Of a stretch of DNA of 64,000 nucleotides, positions 2,911 through 59,663 are shown one piece after another. The stretch spans positions 1 through 64,000 of the IMG/VR virus record IMGVR_UViG_3300002143_000153. One strand, written 5' to 3'. A program made the translations under genes and the position numbers. The notes under the pieces were generated by a model. The model saw only the letters and a list, made by a program, of their open reading frames with translations. It was not told the origin of the DNA and did not search any database. Origin of the DNA: a virus. The stretch's first letter is position 1, and every line of letters starts with the position of its first letter.

Positions 2911-3477
2911 ATGATTAGTAATTTTAGAAAGCCTGATGTAAAAGCTCCTAGATACAGGAAGAAAACATTAAGTTTATTAAACAAACAAACAATTAAAGAA
3001 TTTAAAGATAAGAGACCCTTATATGCTCAAATAGACGATAACAAATTAAAGACAATAATTAAGTTATACAATAGAGCATTATGGGAAGGAGTAATAGAAC
3101 ATAGAGACGGTGTAGAACTACCTGATTCACTGGGTTATATATTTTTAGGAACATGCCCTCCAGCAAAAACTATTAATATAAATTTTTCAAAATCTAATGA
3201 ATACGGTAAAGTACTAAGGAATAAAAATTGGGATACGGATGGTAACATAGGTAAAATCTTTTACACTAACTGGTCTACAAAATACAGGTTTAAAAATAGA
3301 GAACTTTGGTCATTTGTAGCTTGCAGAGAATTTAAAAGAACAGTTGCTAAAGAGTATCCTGAGAACTGGACAAAATATATAAAGATGCAGAGTAAAATGA
3401 AAATCTCACATTTATATGATCCAGATCCTGAAACCACAAGTAAAGCACTTAAAGACTATGATGAATTTGAAACATAA
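2911..3477 (+). CDS. IHF/HU-like DNA-binding protein (crAss-like tail-module gene)
   Basis: Basic protein; LWEGVIEHRDGVELPDSLGYIF resembles the HU/IHF core; lies just before the ring/tube genes. Confidence 0.5.
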   Translation: MISNFRKPDVKAPRYRKKTLSLLNKQTIKEFKDKRPLYAQIDDNKLKTIIKLYNRALWEGVIEHRDGVELPDSLGYIFLGTCPPAKTININFSKSNEYGKVLRNKNWDTDGNIGKIFYTNWSTKYRFKNRELWSFVACREFKRTVAKEYPENWTKYIKMQSKMKISHLYDPDPETTSKALKDYDEFET

Positions 3478-26500: not shown

Positions 26501-29500
26501 AGGAAATGCAAATCTACTTACAAAATTCCATACAGAAAAAGGAATATTAGATCGTACTATAGATAAAGAAATTTATGATGTAATTCAATCAGAAATTAAT
26601 GTATATAATACAGCATCAAATTATAAGCCTGAAATAACAGAAGCAGAAGAGGTAGATGAGTTTGGTAACATTGCAGATGAGTCTCCTGCAAATAAAAGTA
26701 TTGATGAAAGTAAATTTGATAATATAATAAGTGAAGAACTGGGTGATGATGTCTTATCTGAAATACAGGAAGAAACACCTGATAATGATTTAACTATACC
26801 TGGGGATGCTTTTTTTACACTACAGGTTTTAAATAATATTTACAATGATTATAAAATTAAGAATATTAATAAAGAATCTGCGTTATTAACATTTCAGGAA
26901 TGGGTTAATACTAATGCGGGTAATAATGTTGTAAGAGGTTTAGACAAACTAAAAGCTTTATGGTTTAATTCATTAAAAGCATCAGATAAAACAGAAGAAG
27001 AAAACACAACTTTATATAAATCTGAAGAAGGTTTTCAAGATTGGATTCTTGAAAATAAAAATGATAGAGTTGTAAGTCTAATAATGATAATGGCAGGTTT
27101 TAATATAAAATCTATTGAATCAGAAAAAACTGAAACAGACTTAGAAAGTATTGTAGATACAGCAACAGAAGAAGTTATACAGATAGGACCCAATGTAAAC
27201 ATTGTAAAAAGAAAAGTAATTAATCCTGAAGACACAACAGATTTTAATTATATATATGAATTAGTAGATAATAATAATATTTCAATTGAAGCACAATTTT
27301 TAAAAGAAGCTGGTGTTGATGGTATTTATTTAGAAGAAAATAAAGCAGGTGCTTGGGCCGCTTATACAGCACTGTTAAAAGTTGTTCCAAAAACAGATGT
27401 TTATTCATACGATGGTATAGATGTAAAATACGGAGATGAATTAGAAAATGTTAACGGTGATAAATTTATTGTACTAGGTGCAGATACATCACCAAGTATG
27501 GGTCAATATTTAAAGTTGATACCTTTTGATAAAGTTGGATTATCCAATGAACAAAAAAAGGCAGCTATGATTTATGTTAAAGAAAAAGGATTTAGTGATT
27601 TATATTCTAAACCAGAAAATAAAATAACTAGTATTACTTATTCTACAAATATGACTAAATTAGATCACCGTGATATTAACGGTGTATATGCTATACAGTT
27701 AACTAGTAGAACAACAACTTCAGGTAAAGAAACTATAAAGGATGCTGAAGAAAGATTACAAAAAACTTTATCTCTTTTATCAGCTGAAGATTTAGAATCA
27801 GCTACTGTAACAATTAGAGAAAATGTAAGACAAGCGCCTAAAGCTTTTCAAACCGGAACTACACCTGAAAACAACCTTATTCAAAATAAGGGTGATAAAT
27901 ATACTGTGCTAATTACTTTGTCACCAGGGTCTATAGACAAAGTTAAATCTTTGTATGGTGAAAACTTTAATGGTGATATTGCTTTTATTAGAAATGACCG
28001 TTACGGTTTTGTTGGAAGATCAGGTAATCAAGTAAGTGTAGACGCTTTTACAGATGGTAATTTAAAAAAATATATCTTAGGTAATAATACTGATGCGTCA
28101 GATCTTAAGAATCAAATGCTTAGACAAAGTGAATTAACTGAAAAGTTAGATGAATTAGTCAAAGACAATGTTTCTATGAGTCTTAAGGACTTTCAAGATA
28201 CAACCAAAATTAACTTAAAAATAAGCGATGGTATAGTTACTTGGGATGATGTTACTAAAAGCTTAAATGACTTAGCTTATAGTACATATGATGGTGTTAA
28301 AGTTGTAATGATAAACACTAAAGACGGTGTATCATATGTTACAGATATAAAGAACCCTACAGAAGAAGTAGCTTTTATAAATAAGTTAGAAGAAGATTTA
28401 GAAAAAACACCAAAGCCAGAAAAGTATGGTAATATGCTAAACATGGCGCTTGATTCTGGTAGATATGTAGCTATTGTTAAAGATGCTAATGGTGTAGTAA
28501 CAGCGGTACAGTTAAGACAAAAATCTTATAGCAAAGAAGAACGTACTGAATTTTATAAAGAACTTTTAGATAGAGCAAAAGAGACAGCTGATAATAATGT
28601 TAAAGAGGGAAATGTTTCAAATAAAACAATTAATAATGATTGGAATGATAACTTTAATAAAAGGTTTTATTTAAAAGCAACAGCAGGTACTTTTATTGAT
28701 TTTAAAGTTTGGCCTGATGGTAATATAACTTTGAGTATACATAATAAAGCTAAAGGATTAGAAAAGCAACTTGAAAGAATTAGAGTTGCTGATTTAAATG
28801 AATATATAAAAGATCCTATAAAGGTGGAATCATTATATGAAGTTTTAAATAATAATGATGTTGTTGTTAAATTTAATAAATATCAATCTGAAAAAATAAA
28901 TTTATCAGGAGAATCAGTAACACGAGTTTTTGCTACTACAGCAGGTGTTAGTGAGATCATTGAAAAGACAGTTACTGATATAAATCCAAACGTTAGAATA
29001 AATAAAAAACTGTATCTAGAATACACTTCAGATTTAATAGAAGCAGAAAAAATTATACCTGGTGTAGAATTAGAAGATCAAAAAGGTGAAGTATTAACAC
29101 CACAAGAAACGGCTATAGCCACAGATAAAGTATCTGATATAAATCAAATACAAGCTGCTAGAGAAAGTCAAGAAGAATTAAATAGTGATGAAATAACAGC
29201 TGAAGCTGATATAGAAAGAGAATTATTCACAACCCCTATTAGCTTAAACAACTGGACTTCTGTAGAGCATGGTAAGTATATAAAATTACTTACACTAAGA
29301 GGAGATTTAGAAAAAAGAGATTTATTGAGAAATCTTGACCCTAAAAGTAGTTGGCAACTTTATGCAGTTGAAAATCTTTCAGAAGAAGAAGCTGGTGATA
29401 TTTTATCTATCATAAAAGAAGCTAAAAAAGCTGATATAGAAATAAGAAAAAATAAATCAAGAACTATTGATTCACAACCTTTTCAAAGAAACAATACTAC

Positions 29501-52189: not shown

Positions 52190-52327
52190 ATGGCTAAAAT
52201 TAATGTAGGTGGTACATTCCAGAAAAAAACAAAAGTTAAAAGACCTGGTGTGCATGCTAAAACTAAAACTAGCAATAACAAAAATAGTGCAAACTATAAA
52301 AAGAAATATATAGGGCAAGGTAAATGA
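52190..52327 (+). CDS. 45-aa highly basic microprotein (not in ORF track)
   Basis: MAKINVGG...KRPGVHAK...YKKKYIGQGK; ATGA overlap with the next ORF. Confidence 0.7.
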   Translation: MAKINVGGTFQKKTKVKRPGVHAKTKTSNNKNSANYKKKYIGQGK

Positions 52328-52470
52328 AGGATTGGAGTTTATTAATAGCTTTTCACTGGCCTCATGATAGATTTATATTTGGTTGGGAAATAATACATCC
52401 TGATAAAGAATTTAATACATATAATTTTACATTATATTTGTTGATAGTAACGTTAACTTTAGAAATTTAA
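52324..52470 (+). CDS. 48-aa hydrophobic beta-type microprotein (not in ORF track)
   Basis: MKDWSLLIAFHWPHDRFIFGWEII...LYLLIVTLTLEI; translationally coupled. Confidence 0.65.
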   Translation: MKDWSLLIAFHWPHDRFIFGWEIIHPDKEFNTYNFTLYLLIVTLTLEI

Positions 52471-54816: not shown

Positions 54817-54963
54817 ATGACAGAAGCACAAGCAAAAGAAGTACTTTACAATGCAGTTAACATAGCAACCTCTAAAGGTTGTTATAATTTAGATCAAACT
54901 ATTAATATAGTAGATGCATTAAGAATTGTTTTAGTAAAAGAAGAAGAAACTGTAAGTTTGTAA
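54817..54963 (+). CDS. 48-aa helical microprotein (not in ORF track)
   Basis: MTEAQAKEVLYNAVNIATSKGCYNLDQTINIVDAL...; ends just before the terminator. Confidence 0.6.
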   Translation: MTEAQAKEVLYNAVNIATSKGCYNLDQTINIVDALRIVLVKEEETVSL

Positions 54964-54983
54964 GGTTACTAATCAGTGAAAAT

Positions 54984-55013
54984 AAAAAGGGAGCCATTGA
55001 AGCTCCCTTTTTT
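54984..55013. terminator. Bidirectional intrinsic terminator
   Basis: AAAAAGGGAGC-CATTGAA-GCTCCCTTTTTT between convergent genes. Confidence 0.85.
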
Positions 55014-55036
55014 ATTATAAACTTTTTTTAAGTTAT

Positions 55037-55126
55037 TTAATCTTGAGATTTATTTTTTCCAAATATTAAAATAGATAAAATAAATAATACTATAGTTATT
55101 ATTACTTCAATAATACCCTTAAGCAT
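55037..55126 (-). CDS. 29-aa single-TM microprotein (not in ORF track)
   Basis: MLKGIIEVIITIVLFILSILIFGKNKSQD; TAATG-coupled to the DUF932 gene. Confidence 0.45.
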   Translation of the reverse strand: MLKGIIEVIITIVLFILSILIFGKNKSQD

Positions 55127-55971
55127 TATAAAATAAATGCTTCATTAGTAATTTCTATGTCTTCAATAGCATTAAAATTATCAGTTGCTGCATTAGCAAT
55201 AACAGAATCTTTTTGTTGAATTCCCATTTGACCCAGCAAGTCAGCAACAATAAAGTCATGAAACTTTTGACTATCACTTAACCAAGTTCTTGGATGTGAT
55301 TTTTTTAAAGCATGTGTAACATGGTTGTAAAAAGTCCATGCATTGTCTTTATCAGCATTATAATCATATGATGCCTTTGTCATCTCATTTTTAATAACAG
55401 CTACCTGACTGGTGTCAATTATTTCTTTTTCTGCATATAATCTACCTAGTAATTCTGACTGTGCTTTTATATCTAAAGTAACATTTCTTAGATTATTTTT
55501 ATCATCAATGATACGTCTGTAATATTTCTCAGCATTTTTGATTTGATTTGATATTTGCATTAAAATATCATAATCTGCAGATCCTGTATGTTTTCTTCTG
55601 AAATTCATCATATCACCTGCAACCATACCATTATAACATACCATTACGTATGCGCCAATAGCACACTGAAAAACTGTACTTTTATCATATGAATTTGTCC
55701 AGGCAAACATCATCCCAAGTTCTGATTCAGTTTTTACTAAATTATCTAGCGGGTTTCTAGGTACAATATGATATATACCTTGAGCTACATTTGCGTTCAT
55801 GTTAGCTCTATAAAGTTCTCTAGTAACATGGAAACCACTGGCATTCAGCATGTTGAGAGTATTGTGTATAACCTCTTTATGAGGAATTACGGTGTAAGAT
55901 TGACCGTGGGTTGGTAATGAGGCAGCCTCTAAATAGGCTCTCGTTGTGTCTTTTGGTTTTGTATATCCCAT
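55126..55971 (-). CDS. DUF932/DUF945-like protein
   Basis: NSYDKS...VCYNG...RKH and W..YN.VT motifs. Confidence 0.7.
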   Translation of the reverse strand: MGYTKPKDTTRAYLEAASLPTHGQSYTVIPHKEVIHNTLNMLNASGFHVTRELYRANMNANVAQGIYHIVPRNPLDNLVKTESELGMMFAWTNSYDKSTVFQCAIGAYVMVCYNGMVAGDMMNFRRKHTGSADYDILMQISNQIKNAEKYYRRIIDDKNNLRNVTLDIKAQSELLGRLYAEKEIIDTSQVAVIKNEMTKASYDYNADKDNAWTFYNHVTHALKKSHPRTWLSDSQKFHDFIVADLLGQMGIQQKDSVIANAATDNFNAIEDIEITNEAFIL

Positions 55972-55996
55972 TTATTTATATTTATTATTCTTGTAA

Positions 55997-56266
55997 TAAA
56001 GTGCGGTAAAACGCTCTTTTGATATGTATTTATGCGGTATTATACGTATTTGCAGCATAAAGTGCAGTATAAGGTACTTTTATATGCTTTAATGTAGTAT
56101 ATATGACGCATTAAGGGTGTTAATTCGGATAATGTCCGAGTTATGCAACATAATTTTGCATAATAAACCTTACAGATATATTGTGCATTTTTTAACAAAT
56201 TGGTTTACTTATTGGTTTGTATTTATACTTTATATGCTTGTCACAAATTTACAAATAATTGTGACA
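55997..56266. repeat. Non-coding array of diverse ~21-28 bp palindromes
   Basis: Inverted repeats at 55998-56019, 56059-56080, 56089-56114, 56122-56142, 56141-56163 and 56239-56266. Confidence 0.8.
56244..56251 (-). promoter_or_regulatory. TAnnTTTG -7 box embedded in the TGTCACAA/TTGTGACA palindrome
   Basis: Minus strand TAAATTTG, facing the array and the DUF932 gene. Confidence 0.45.
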
Positions 56267-56288
56267 CAATAAGATCAAAATTTAATAT

Positions 56289-56486
56289 TTATTTAACTAT
56301 TTCAACTTCAGTCCATCCAGCAAGATGAACAATTTCACCTTTTAAATTAATGCAGTATGAATACATGCCATCAAGATGGTCAAATATTAATATATCTTCT
56401 TGATTTAATTTAGGACTTTCTGGTGGAGTATCTGCATCAGATATTATTCTGATTTTAGATCCTTTTGGTATGTCGTATAATTTCAT
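56289..56486 (-). CDS. Small hypothetical protein
   Basis: 65-aa ORF with FDHLDGMYSYC. Confidence 0.6.
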   Translation of the reverse strand: MKLYDIPKGSKIRIISDADTPPESPKLNQEDILIFDHLDGMYSYCINLKGEIVHLAGWTEVEIVK

Positions 56487-56647
56487 AAACTTTTGATTTT
56501 ATCAATACCTAATTCATAATGAATAGCCTGTGTGTTAACGTCAGTATTAGATATTGTTGAATAATATAAATTAGAAATTTCCTTTTTTTTATGAAGTTGT
56601 TCTAATATGTTTTGATTAGCTACTTTGTATAGTTCTTTTTTATTCAT
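56483..56647 (-). CDS. 54-aa hypothetical protein (not in ORF track)
   Basis: MNKKELYKV...; overlaps the mazG-like stop and is ATGA-coupled to the next ORF. Confidence 0.45.
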   Translation of the reverse strand: MNKKELYKVANQNILEQLHKKKEISNLYYSTISNTDVNTQAIHYELGIDKIKSL

Positions 56648-56942
56648 CTTTTACAAATTGACCGGCTACCATTTTACCAGTTCTTTTACTAATCACATTG
56701 TATGCTGATTCTAAGCATTCTTCAAGACTTAGTCCTTGCATCTTAGCTTGAATAATCAAGGTAACCATAATGTCACCCATAGCATCAATGATCTCAGGAA
56801 CATCATTTTTATTTACTGCTGTACAGAACTCTGTACATTCTTCTAATGTTTTTAGTGCTTGAGCCATTGGTGTAGCTTTCTCTAAAATACCTTTTTCTTC
56901 CGCCCATGTTTCTACTGCGCATTCTAATTCAAAATAATCCAT
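56640..56942 (-). CDS. mazG: MazG-like nucleotide pyrophosphohydrolase
   Basis: KTLEECTE...DAMGDIMVTL...AYNVISKRTG. Confidence 0.8.
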   Translation of the reverse strand: MDYFELECAVETWAEEKGILEKATPMAQALKTLEECTEFCTAVNKNDVPEIIDAMGDIMVTLIIQAKMQGLSLEECLESAYNVISKRTGKMVAGQFVKDE

Positions 56943-56956
56943 TTGGTTTTAATTGT

Positions 56957-57616
56957 TTAATTGTTTGCTAATAAGTCTAATACTTCTATTAATGATTCAT
57001 GTCTATGGTTATCTTTTAAAATAACTTTGCTGACATATTTAGAGCCAACTATTTTTGCAACTTCATGAATTGCTGAATAATTTTTATCTTTTAAATCAAT
57101 TTGTTGGCTATCTCCACAAAGAATCATTATTGAATCTTTACCAAGTCTACCCAACACCATTGCTAGTTGAGATCTAGTTAAGTTTTGAAATTCATCTATA
57201 ATAACTACAGAATGATCAAAAGTTCTTCCTCTAAAATGTGCTAAAGACACTAATTCAATTGCTTCTTCTTTCTCCATTTTCTCTAATAAAGCAGGTTTAT
57301 TGTAAACCTTTCTCATATTAGATCTAATAGGTACAAGCCATGGTTCCATTTTTTCTTTTTCTGAACCAGGTAAAAAACCATTATCTTCTGTTGAGACTGT
57401 TGGTCTTGTGATAATAATTTTATTATACTGTCTCTTGAAAAATTGATCCAATGCAATTTGTACTGCAAGTAATGTTTTACCACTACCTGCATTACCCATT
57501 ACAAAATTAAATGGATGGTACAATATTGTGTCTTTAGCTAATTTTTGTTCTTCAGATAATTGAATTGTAAATCTGATGGCTCCCTTGGGAGATTCTTTTT
57601 CTTTGTTTTGTGCCAT
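56957..57616 (-). CDS. phoH: PhoH-like ATPase
   Basis: GNAGSGKT, RP..E..GFLPG, RGRTF, IIDEFQN, GD..Q.D and HR motifs. Confidence 0.92.
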   Translation of the reverse strand: MAQNKEKESPKGAIRFTIQLSEEQKLAKDTILYHPFNFVMGNAGSGKTLLAVQIALDQFFKRQYNKIIITRPTVSTEDNGFLPGSEKEKMEPWLVPIRSNMRKVYNKPALLEKMEKEEAIELVSLAHFRGRTFDHSVVIIDEFQNLTRSQLAMVLGRLGKDSIMILCGDSQQIDLKDKNYSAIHEVAKIVGSKYVSKVILKDNHRHESLIEVLDLLANN

Positions 57617-59614
57617 TTAAAATAAAGTTAGTTGATTACTAGGGGATTTTAATATGTTATCTATCTCTTGTTCTATAGCTTCAAGATAATATCCTTTGTT
57701 GATATTATAACTATCCCACTTAGGTTTAATTTCCATTTTATTGAAAACTGTTTGTAACCATTTTCCTGCTTCTAATTGAATTTCTCTTTTATCTGTTTTA
57801 TTTACTTTAATAATCTTAACTCCAGTTTTAGATATGTAATATCTATTAATTTTCTGAAGAGGTTCTTCCATGTATTCACCTTCTTTTATATAACGCGCAA
57901 CCTGTTTCCAATCACCTTTTGATTTACCACCAATACAATAATCTAATATATTTTTATTCTGCTCTAAATACTCAGTTGGCATAATATTATGTATAAAATA
58001 ATTGTATATTGCTTTTGGTATAATCAACTTAGATTTATTCTTATGCAATGCTAAGTTATAAAAGTCAAATCTACCCTTCATTTTTGCTGGAGCATAATAA
58101 AATTTATCATTAACCACTTTAAATTTATAATGAGGGTTCTTTTTCTTTATATCTCTATAATCTGTAATGTCAATTTGTTTGAAATCATTAAGACCAATAT
58201 AGTTATTTACATCACCAAGTACCAATTTTTGGTATTTATCATGTTCAAGCTCTAAATTGGTTAACTCTTCCCATTCTTTACAAATTTCCATATAAGCATC
58301 TACTGAGTCTTTAGGGATAATAGTTTCTAAACCGTCAGTATTTTGCATTAAAGCTTTAGCATTTGGAATTCTTTCCATAATCATCTCATATAACATTATC
58401 AAACTTAGTTGACCGTTAATTGTGATTCTCATAGTTAACTCAGGATCATAAAAGAAGCTATTTACATCGTTGCTAAGACCGAAAGTAGAATTAAGTATAA
58501 TCTTATATACATAGTTCATTGGATTGCTCTTAGGGATCTTCTTACGCTCTTCAAAGAACCATTCATATTGGTCACAGAATTCTTGTGCTGGAAAATGACC
58601 CGGGGCCCATTTATTTCTAATAACTAGATTAGGATAAAATGAAGTAACATCTGAAGACATAATAACGTATTCATCTGTTGATTTATATATCCCACCTATT
58701 GTTGCACCATGTACACCGCCTACACCAAAATCTGTTTTAACACCTTTATAAGTAACAGAATATTTAAATGCTCCTTTAAGATTATCTGGATTTAATTCAA
58801 CAGAGTTAAATCTATCCAGTAGTTGTTTAAATTCAGGCGATGTAAACTTTATGTACGGTAATATAATGTCCTTAAACTTAATAACATTTCTGTGAGTTCT
58901 CATTGTCTTGAGCACTCTTTTATTTATGTTTAGTTTTTTAGACATATAGTAAGCAAACAGTTCTTTACTTATACGTGGTTCTGAAGCACTATAAAGATTA
59001 ATATCATATTCATCAGTTAATTCTTTTCTGAGTTTTATAAGATCTTTTGATCTGTTAAAAATCTCTTTGGTTGACCTAACATCATTAATATTATAACCTA
59101 TTATAGTATCTATCTCCTGTAGAGTTTTAATTTCAGTTTCATGGTGAATTGGCATATCTAATATGTTATCCCAGTCCATGCTATATTGTATCCACTTTAA
59201 ACTTGAACGTTTAGCAGGGTTATCCCAATGATGCATTTTATATAGATCAATCTGACCTATAGACATTTTCCATTGAGGATAATCACTAAATTGTTTTGAA
59301 TCACTTTTTGATATGCATTTTGCAGCATATTCATATATGATAGCTGCTATTTCGCAGCCACCTAGATTTAACCAAGCAGCATGTTTCTCTATAATGTATT
59401 GTGTGATTTGACTGTCAAATGCCAAACCATTATATGAAATATGCCACTCTTTATTATCTGTATTTTGTTTTAAGAATTCTATAAACTCTACAAAATCATT
59501 TCTCAGGTCATGAACAACAAAGATTTTAATTTCCTTTGTTTTATAATCTTCAAATACCCCTGTGAAACAATTGGATAACGTTTCATAGTCGTGAACCCAG
59601 TGTTTTTTACTCAT
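57617..59614 (-). CDS. polB: Family B DNA polymerase with 3'-5' exonuclease
   Basis: Exonuclease motifs DYE, YN..FD, YN..D; polymerase motifs DVTSFYPN, KIILNSTFG, NTDG; likely start MSKKH at 59614. Confidence 0.9.
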   Translation of the reverse strand: MSKKHWVHDYETLSNCFTGVFEDYKTKEIKIFVVHDLRNDFVEFIEFLKQNTDNKEWHISYNGLAFDSQITQYIIEKHAAWLNLGGCEIAAIIYEYAAKCISKSDSKQFSDYPQWKMSIGQIDLYKMHHWDNPAKRSSLKWIQYSMDWDNILDMPIHHETEIKTLQEIDTIIGYNINDVRSTKEIFNRSKDLIKLRKELTDEYDINLYSASEPRISKELFAYYMSKKLNINKRVLKTMRTHRNVIKFKDIILPYIKFTSPEFKQLLDRFNSVELNPDNLKGAFKYSVTYKGVKTDFGVGGVHGATIGGIYKSTDEYVIMSSDVTSFYPNLVIRNKWAPGHFPAQEFCDQYEWFFEERKKIPKSNPMNYVYKIILNSTFGLSNDVNSFFYDPELTMRITINGQLSLIMLYEMIMERIPNAKALMQNTDGLETIIPKDSVDAYMEICKEWEELTNLELEHDKYQKLVLGDVNNYIGLNDFKQIDITDYRDIKKKNPHYKFKVVNDKFYYAPAKMKGRFDFYNLALHKNKSKLIIPKAIYNYFIHNIMPTEYLEQNKNILDYCIGGKSKGDWKQVARYIKEGEYMEEPLQKINRYYISKTGVKIIKVNKTDKREIQLEAGKWLQTVFNKMEIKPKWDSYNINKGYYLEAIEQEIDNILKSPSNQLTLF

Positions 59615-59639
59615 ATTTCTATTTTTATTTATTAGAGCC

Positions 59640-59663
59640 AAAAAAGCCCAAATCAATGGGCTT
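59640..59663 (-). terminator. Intrinsic terminator-like hairpin upstream of polB
   Basis: Minus strand AAGCCCA-TTGATT-TGGGCTT followed by TTTT. Confidence 0.6.

Follow-up and report, generated by a model that had tools for sequence, protein, structure and literature searches.

The 64,000-nucleotide (nt) stretch of viral DNA analysed here, hereafter the window, is part of the IMG/VR record IMGVR_UViG_3300002143_000153 (93,957 bp, estimated to be 82% complete). The window phage has a G+C content of ~30% and carries a 4,987-amino-acid (aa) open reading frame (ORF) of the kind typical of crAss-like phages. Positions 55998-56266 of the window, which lie in a gap upstream of a gene for a DUF932 protein, represent a single copy of a DNA cassette that is conserved, modular and non-coding and is usually carried by marine phages of ~30 kb. 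The distribution of the cassette suggests that the window lineage gained it by horizontal transfer, and the best explanation, which we hold tentatively, is that the transferred cassette would be a DNA-level protein-recognition element of the origin or operator type.

A family of cassettes in ~30-kb phages

Copies of the cassette were collected by exact-pattern scans of short conserved stretches in viral and metagenome contigs, followed by searches with nhmmer and a sequence-only Infernal model. The use of a 126/127-aa protein as bait yielded 45 further loci, and the element was found in most of them. The family comprises at least 28 distinct copies, and their flanks are unrelated. Across the ~160-206 aligned nt of the model alignment, the copies had an identity of about 68-89% to that of the window, while the closest copies were 83-92% identical in local BLAST over ~160-205 nt (55997-56194 and beyond), and the homology stopped sharply. 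The sequence beyond 56194 is also family material, including the ATTGGTTT repeats and an inverted repeat that we call palindrome C. No change private to the window copy fell in the columns that hardly vary in the family, but the copy has a few changes at positions that are constant among the copies with the module concerned.

In most carrier contigs, the element begins at the stop codon of the 126/127-aa ORF. Two carriers are nearly complete ~30-kb genomes, G006 (29.6 kb, 95%) and G007 (30.9 kb, 99%), each of which has one copy; the cassette is also single-copy in the window genome. In G006, the cassette is located where a long plus-strand block, presumably of structural genes, meets a minus-strand operon, at the 3' end of that operon. 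Such a site, where the early and the late operon converge, is the usual one in the ~30-kb phages. The operon encodes a RusA-like resolvase, Erf, an exonuclease, a DnaA C-terminal helix-turn-helix (HTH) protein (DnaA_C; PF08299, E = 3e-24) and four small proteins. A DnaA_C gene was found at most 2 kb from the cassette in most, not all, carrier loci. In L203 and L204, a DnaA_C gene and then a 56-aa gene are followed by a strong intrinsic terminator (14-bp stem), after which come the cassette, another hairpin and the end of a convergent exonuclease gene; the cassette is insulated there from read-through on both sides. Since the strong terminator separates it from the upstream gene, the cassette of these two loci is not simply a 3' untranslated region (UTR).

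The mean nucleotide identity within the native family was 79% for the cassette versus 81% for the adjacent 127-aa gene, and the idea that the cassette is more conserved than its flanks was therefore untrue in this family. The identities of the cassette and the 127-aa gene were uncorrelated between pairs of copies, suggesting mosaic evolution. No carrier of the cassette was found among the cultured phages of the INPHARED collection. Matches of 18-mers in bacterial genomes and other contigs lay inside genes and were due to chance, and two 20-bit matches among 151 sampled genomes were spurious.

Modular organisation of the cassette

The gap, the genes on its two sides and the parts of the cassette are as follows (window coordinates).

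55126..55971, minus strand: DUF932 gene, 281 aa (Pfam PF06067, E = 4.8e-18), downstream of the cassette on the transcribed strand
55972-56288, 317 bp: non-coding gap between two minus-strand genes (g65 and the DUF932 gene), from the ORF list
55972..55997, minus strand: native leader, 26 nt, immediately before the DUF932 start codon
55998..56057, plus strand: cassette unit 1, imperfect dyad AAAGTGCG-N6-CGCTCTTT (55998-56019), then TTTTGATAYG...TATTATACGTAWTTGCA; found in most copies
56058..56121, plus strand: cassette unit 2, paralogue of unit 1 over the first ~45 nt, with dyad AAAGTGCA-N6-GGTACTTT (56059-56080)
56122..56163, plus strand: cassette module B, TCGGATAATGTCSGAGTTATGCWAC.TAATTTTGCA, holding the palindromes 56122-56142 and 56141-56163
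56158..56193, plus strand: conserved inverted repeat, GCA(C/T)AATA-N13-TATTGTGC then a T run; in 23 of 28 copies
56194..56238, plus strand: ATTGGTTT module, two ATTGGTTT repeats (56199 and 56211) and GTATTTATAC
56239..56266, no strand assigned: palindrome C, TGTCACAA-N12-TTGTGACA, core GTCAC-N16-GTGAC; candidate operator/promoter facing DUF932
56289..56486, minus strand: g65, 65 aa, upstream of the cassette on the transcribed strand, from the ORF list

Units 1 and 2 form a direct repeat with a spacing of 61 nt, the first ~45 nt of which are ~75% identical in an alignment; Tandem Repeats Finder did not call this 61-nt repeat. The dyad of unit 1 has a hairpin energy of only -6.9 kcal/mol. Its T·T mismatch was kept in 21 of 24 copies, and its 'loop', GCAGTAAAA, was more conserved than its arms. 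As a side observation on this unit, TT(A/T)ATTCGG occurs only twice in the 29.6-kb genome of G006 (L271 12300-12500; record 27,324-27,489), once in the cassette and once in the divergent early promoter region, where it is followed by TATATTTGCAA, a sequence that resembles the TATTCGG...CGTATTTGCAA stretch of unit 1.

The first eight copies found all had the 20-nt stretch ATATATGACGCATTAAGGGT without variation. It is part of an optional 31-nt block of unit 2 (56094-56124) that at least seven copies (L245, L228, L093, L224, L230, L219 and L220) lack, and the deletion breaks any reading frame. In module B, the sequence is conserved and the pairing is not. The central pair of the AATTCGGA/TCCGAGTT palindrome (56122-56142) is G·G in 22 of 27 copies, and mismatches of A·C (21 of the 27) and T·T (20) interrupt the TTATGCAA/TTGCATAA palindrome (56141-56163). 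Because they are mismatched in most copies, these two are palindromic essentially only in the window.

The 'perfect' TTATGCAA/TTGCATAA palindrome is overlapped by another inverted repeat, which has the form GCATAATA-N13-TATTGTGC followed by TTTTTT (56158-56193) in the window and GCACAATA-N13-TATTGTGC in the family. Its spacer was 13 nt long in all of the 23 copies that have it, and the spacer sequence was replaced or flipped: it is inverted in four copies, and the spacer of L095 is the exact reverse complement of that of L218. The window copy has a C-to-T change in the GCACAATA arm, at a position that is otherwise constant. Further to the right, 19 nt of the ATTGGTTT module match L213 exactly, and repeats like those of the module are found in L232, L239, L243 and L213. 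A minus-strand 17-mer, CAAACCAATAAGTAAAC, is identical in the 30-kb phage G006.

An earlier note on this DNA, made from the letters alone, had described the gap as a compact array of different palindromes. All six inverted repeats that it listed were found where it had placed them, the repeat at 56158-56193 being absent from its list, and ATTGGTTT was present twice as it had reported. The density of palindromes was likewise borne out. Allowing up to one mismatch in arms of 8 and loops of 0-14, we counted 12 inverted-repeat clusters in the 317-bp gap against 4.4 ± 1.9 in 1000 dinucleotide shuffles of it, 0.2% of which reached 12. Clusters with arms of at least three G/C numbered 5 versus 0.45 in the shuffles, a count reached by no shuffle, and the gap had the top inverted-repeat score among all 317-bp segments of the 64 kb. 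Two of the outcomes that the note had named as speaking against its reading were a palindrome density no higher than in shuffled DNA and a conserved coding frame; the density exceeded that of the shuffles, and no coding frame is conserved. The first two palindromes are not independent units: they head one imperfect ~45-nt direct repeat. A striking 'array of palindromes' can thus be partly incidental, two of the six being present only in the window copy.

Coding, RNA and terminator tests

A 52-aa minus-strand frame is open in seven of the first eight copies, yet its variable columns number 14/11/11 by codon position. The copies share no start codon, and 1-nt indels and the 31-nt deletion break the frame. 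Coding was rejected, and the region is non-coding, in agreement with its earlier placement outside the coding track. Separately, the DUF932 leader of the window contains a 28-codon ATG ORF (56053-55969, minus strand) whose TAA directly abuts the DUF932 ATG (TAAATG). This ORF is not kept across the cassette family, in which indels break its frame.

No match to Rfam 15 was obtained in the element at E up to 1-5 for the window copy plus four others, and no ribozyme or other known RNA was found. In a 34-row alignment, the share of paired cells was 83.6% versus 83.6% in shuffles, the covariation score was 0.055 versus 0.057, and all measures fell within the shuffles, the test having little power with copies as highly similar as these. 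RNAalifold gave 47 pairs for the first eight copies, in a long-range model with a negligible covariation term (-0.14), and no consensus pairs for the full 34-row set. The plus strand folded slightly better than its shuffles (z = -2.3). The earlier note had also drawn attention to arm mismatches that are G-T compatible on the plus strand. These are real, but their excess is no more than base composition predicts: mismatch cells across the family comprised 62 G·T versus 28 A·C, and the ratio expected from composition is 1.95. The G·U bias was therefore rejected as a sign of a plus-strand RNA.

The hairpins of the element had folding energies of -5.5 to -7.9 kcal/mol, with -7.1 kcal/mol for the repeat at 56158-56193, -7.8 to -8.8 for palindrome C and -10.5 for the window-specific AATTCGGA/TCCGAGTT palindrome, as compared to -16.8 for a true terminator at 54984-55013. 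A terminator scan called none in the element. Three terminator candidates in it fold at -5.5 to -7.1 kcal/mol, each with a T-run after it, and their stems are weak. The terminator at 54984-55013, AAAAAGGGAGC-N7-GCTCCCTTTTTT, is strong (about -17 kcal/mol) and apparently bidirectional, and is located at the convergent junction 54963-55126. Weak Rfam matches at the same place (sraA and STnc250) probably reflect just the terminator hairpin.

Palindrome C and the candidate DUF932 promoter

Palindrome C occurs only once in the 94-kb genome. Its spacer contains, on the minus strand, TAAATTTG (56251-56244), which fits the Bacteroidota -7 box TAnnTTTG, so that the overlap of the last palindrome with such a box, which the earlier note had pointed out, is present. 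The closest relative, L002, has a homologous GTCAC-N17-GTGAC located 21 nt before the DUF932 ATG and overlapping a TATATTTG box. Palindrome C also follows the cassette in 13 other copies, with a spacing of N16-18. Its symmetry was kept in L232, L239 and L243, in which the central arm pair C-G is changed to A-T; two other copies were changed without a matching change. In the donors, the dyad lies at a convergent junction without a downstream gene. Of the parts of the cassette, palindrome C is the best candidate for activity in this phage, as a candidate operator overlapping a putative DUF932-directed promoter.

A scan for the Bacteroidota promoter TTTG-N19-21-TAnnTTTG was uninformative genome-wide, and sigma-70-like matches were not above those in shuffles. 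A degenerate scan of viral contigs for palindrome C gave mostly chance matches, and no convincing occurrence of the motifs of the region was found elsewhere in the 94-kb genome. A palindrome-C-like dyad, GTCAC-N16-GTGAC, that is identical to that of the window at 24 of 29 nt was observed at 3371-3404 of L082, inside the gene for an 88-aa membrane protein. The same intragenic dyad occurs in L224, L228, L231, L242 and L245 at ~2338-2411. These loci belong to one subfamily of 30-kb phages, and the subfamily with the dyad inside the 88-aa protein gene has no dyad after the cassette.

Relatives of the window phage and probable transfer of the cassette

There were 157 relatives of the DUF932 protein in viral contigs, and 80 loci with DUF932 relatives of 56-77% amino-acid identity, mostly from genomes of ~115 kb, were fetched. 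The space upstream of DUF932 in these relatives is usually only ~50 nt and contains a promoter-like block, TTTG...TATATTTACACTTTAAAAGTTTA-N5-7-ATG, with only ~25 nt from the conserved promoter-like box to the ATG. A conserved block of the form TTTGCTGAGTCA-N-TTATTATATTTACACTTTAAAAGTTTA-N5-7-ATG was observed ~50 nt upstream of the DUF932 ATG (locus ~2950-3000) in dozens of diverged crAss-like relatives (L009-L081). It resembles a gene-specific promoter plus leader, and its TATATTTACAC form is missing in the window and L002.

The 317 bp of the gap gave no match to the DUF932 loci by blastn or tblastx, and a profile search for the element found nothing in all 80 of them. The cassette was also missing from five complete ~115-kb crAss-like relatives. 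Because the cassette is missing in crAss-like relatives and its usual carriers are ~30-kb phages, we infer that it was transferred horizontally into the window lineage. The stretch from g679 to DUF932 (window 56289-59656; L002-L041) is a hypervariable cargo slot in which PhoH, MazG, g65, a 54-aa ORF and a 278-aa gene occur in varied combinations, and the window is without the 278-aa gene. The possibility that the gap is a remnant of this gene of the relatives was rejected, as no blastn or tblastx similarity was found.

In the window, the cassette is inverted with respect to the local genes and lies between palindrome C and the DUF932 start codon. Its left junction is at 55997/55998, and the homology to all other copies begins at 55997-56000. 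Short homologies are present at both junctions: CACTTTA on the left, which is common to the native promoter block, and a ATATTTGTGAC-type sequence on the right, ATATT(T)GTGAC, which is common to the -7 box of L002. These homologies may have mediated the recombination. On inspection, neither terminal inverted repeats nor target duplications were seen at 55997/56266, and the cassette, with a single copy per genome, does not qualify as a miniature inverted-repeat transposable element or another insertion element. Apart from a 48-aa ORF and a distant exonuclease, no protein is common to the window phage and the 30-kb phages. The 48-aa ORF (window 52324-52470, plus strand) had 26 matches, with homologues of 47-55% identity in the ~30-kb cassette phages.

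Possible role of the cassette

In the explanation that we tentatively favour, the cassette would act as double-stranded DNA read by sequence-specific proteins. It would be neither a set of hairpins nor a folded RNA but an array of iterons and inverted repeats, for example a regulatory landing pad or an origin of phage replication, and palindrome C would serve as an operator over a promoter reading toward DUF932. Recognition as double-stranded DNA is favoured because the primary sequence is conserved, loops and mismatches included, and because the spacer of the 56158-56193 repeat is fixed in length while its sequence is replaced or inverted. The direct repeats, the single copy per genome and the insulation by terminators in one native context argue in the same direction, as do the weak hairpins and the DnaA_C-HTH gene near the cassette in most native loci. 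A replication origin is possible: TTTTGCACA, which consists of the left arm of the 56158-56193 repeat and its flank, fits the DnaA-box consensus TTWTNCACA in 20 of 28 copies.

Several observations weigh against this explanation. The cassette never has more than one DnaA box, so that a DnaA-box cluster was rejected; the window copy has lost the box, and none is present in the whole G006 genome, in which the candidates for the replication loader and helicase lie ~5 kb from the cassette. Neither a DnaA_C protein nor any homologue of the 126/127-, 88/89- and 129-aa proteins that neighbour the cassette in the 30-kb phages is encoded in the window genome, at its 82% completeness. Every module is absent from some copy, the promoter assignments are consensus matches only, and RNA is disfavoured rather than excluded by the covariation test. 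Besides, a stop codon marks the exact start of the cassette in most native loci, and a hairpin with a T-run on the same strand marks its end, an arrangement that also suits a 3'-UTR-derived or independent RNA.

Such an RNA would be a small non-coding one, made from an independent gene or processed from a 3' UTR, encoded on the plus strand of the window and ending at the GCAYAATA/TATTGTGC hairpin with its U-run, and it would have been captured as a non-coding 'moron'. We consider this rather unlikely. It would account for the start of the cassette at the last stop codon of the operon in most native loci, for the hairpin and T-run on the same strand, for the different hairpin that L082 and L206 carry in place of the terminal one at the same position, for the z-score of the plus-strand fold and for a constraint near that of the adjacent coding gene (79% vs 81%). 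There is also a precedent in the abundant non-coding RNAs of phi14:2 (bioRxiv 10.1101/2020.03.07.982082), but the cassette has no homology to the phi14:2 non-coding region. Moreover, covariation, a consensus fold and an Rfam match are all absent, the G·U bias fits the base composition, mismatches are conserved, and the 13-nt 'loop' tolerates inversion at a fixed length. The left edge is without a conserved upstream promoter, no plus-strand gene of the window reads into it, and a terminator stands before it in L203. A related but improbable reading is that of an expression element at the RNA level, which would provide a cluster of terminators and 3'-end-protecting hairpins in the donors and, in the window, a long structured 5' leader attenuating or tuning the translation of DUF932, possibly with the 28-codon upstream ORF. 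The location at operon ends, the symmetry of A-tract, stem and T-tract in the first two dyads and, for the window copy, the site that separates palindrome C from the ATG agree with this reading; against it, the hairpins are weak, no terminator was called, the donors have separate strong terminators beside the cassette, and frame-breaking indels rule out a conserved upstream ORF.

The cassette may instead have no role in the window phage, being a neutral remnant of recombination, illegitimate or mediated by microhomology, with a 30-kb phage that infected the same cell, that is, a tolerated 240-nt insertion in the DUF932 leader. This is doubtful but deserves serious weight, given that the g679-DUF932 slot is highly variable among the relatives, the cognate neighbour genes are missing from the window genome, the orientation is opposite to that in native contexts, both junctions show short homologies, and positions that are otherwise constant are changed in the window copy, as in the C-to-T change of the GCACAATA arm. 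On the other hand, phage genomes are compact and this gap is among the longest of the window. The window copy differs by 11-20% from the closer sampled copies (up to ~32% from the most divergent), yet it has no private change in the nearly invariant columns, and the retention of palindrome C at the same place in L002 suggests that the acquisition was not very recent. In the earlier note, the array had been read as a DNA sponge whose several unrelated operators would titrate regulators of the host or of defence systems. The significantly high palindrome density and the DNA-level features would also fit a sponge, but the units are parts of a single conserved cassette that was moved or inherited as a block and not an assembled collection. 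Two of the palindromes are specific to the window copy, two lie within a direct repeat, the cassette is single-copy, and it had no host-genome match in one bacterial-genome scan or in the 151 sampled genomes; we regard the sponge as having hardly any probability. In a narrower form of the idea, which we rate as very improbable, the crAss-like phage would keep the origin or operator cassette of a competing ~30-kb phage family with the same host, without the cognate proteins, as a decoy that titrates the DNA-binding protein or proteins of the competitor (such as the DnaA_C-HTH protein or a binder of palindrome C) in co-infection. It would be a phage-borne analogue of the interference known as origin-derived phage-encoded resistance ('Per').

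If recognition as double-stranded DNA of the origin or operator type holds, the cassette represents a new family of conserved non-coding DNA in uncultured marine phages, one without an Rfam entry. Some 270 bp of non-coding DNA has apparently crossed between ~30-kb Erf/DnaA_C phages and a ~100-kb crAss-like phage, and this DNA is conserved like the neighbouring protein gene. As an origin or landing pad, it would offer a handle on replication or on early/late control in phages without a cultured representative; as an RNA, it would belong to a new class of phage RNAs, and an active captured copy would point to interference or cross-talk among phages in co-infection.

Genes around the cassette

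The ATG of the DUF932 gene is at 55971-55969, and the stop codon of g65 is 22 nt away from palindrome C. Homologues of g65 adjoin DUF932 or a 278-aa gene in the relatives. Farther upstream of g65 on the minus strand are a 54-aa ORF, MazG, PhoH and the 679-aa gene g679 (57617-59656). The GC skew of the window tracks gene orientation only, and ARAGORN detected no tRNA or transfer-messenger RNA (tmRNA) gene in the window.

Comparison with known systems

Small tailed phages have non-coding origins that lie where the early region ends and contain both direct and inverted repeats; such origins have been used as decoys, as in 'Per' in Lactococcus. The cassette resembles these origins in being single-copy, AT-rich and non-coding, in having direct and inverted repeats, and in closing an early replication/recombination operon; a DnaA-type HTH gene also lies close by in most native loci. 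It differs in having at most one DnaA-box-like site, and the window phage is without the candidate binding proteins. Phage 'morons' are self-contained units of promoter, gene and terminator that are inserted between genes and carry a protein gene. Like a moron, the cassette is a discrete foreign unit between two operon genes with sharp boundaries of homology; unlike a moron, it has no coding capacity.

The crAss-like phage phi14:2 produces abundant non-coding RNAs from long intergenic regions, and Drobysheva et al. reported that its g004-g005 and g005-g006 intergenic regions are highly transcribed (bioRxiv 10.1101/2020.03.07.982082). The likeness is a long intergenic stretch in the non-structural part of a marine crAss-like genome, and phi14:2 is a conceptual precedent only: its region has no sequence similarity to the cassette, and part of it is a tmRNA gene. 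ARAGORN located this gene at 4031-4500 of L263 (Cellulophaga phage phi14:2, NC_021806), with the tag peptide GSSVQKLAMVA, within the non-coding stretch g004-g006.

The closest described concept is that of the promoter-early stem-loop (PeSL) cassettes of T4-like phages, which are short conserved non-coding cassettes of the promoter/terminator type, are present in many copies within one genome and act within one phage group (PMC2839356; PMC4122927). The cassette described here differs from PeSLs in that it is single-copy per genome (window, G006 and G007), is longer (~200-270 bp) with several optional modules, is common to unrelated phage types and has weak hairpins. It is like them in that its edges coincide with recombination junctions in a variable slot, the homology to foreign phages starting and ending at these edges.

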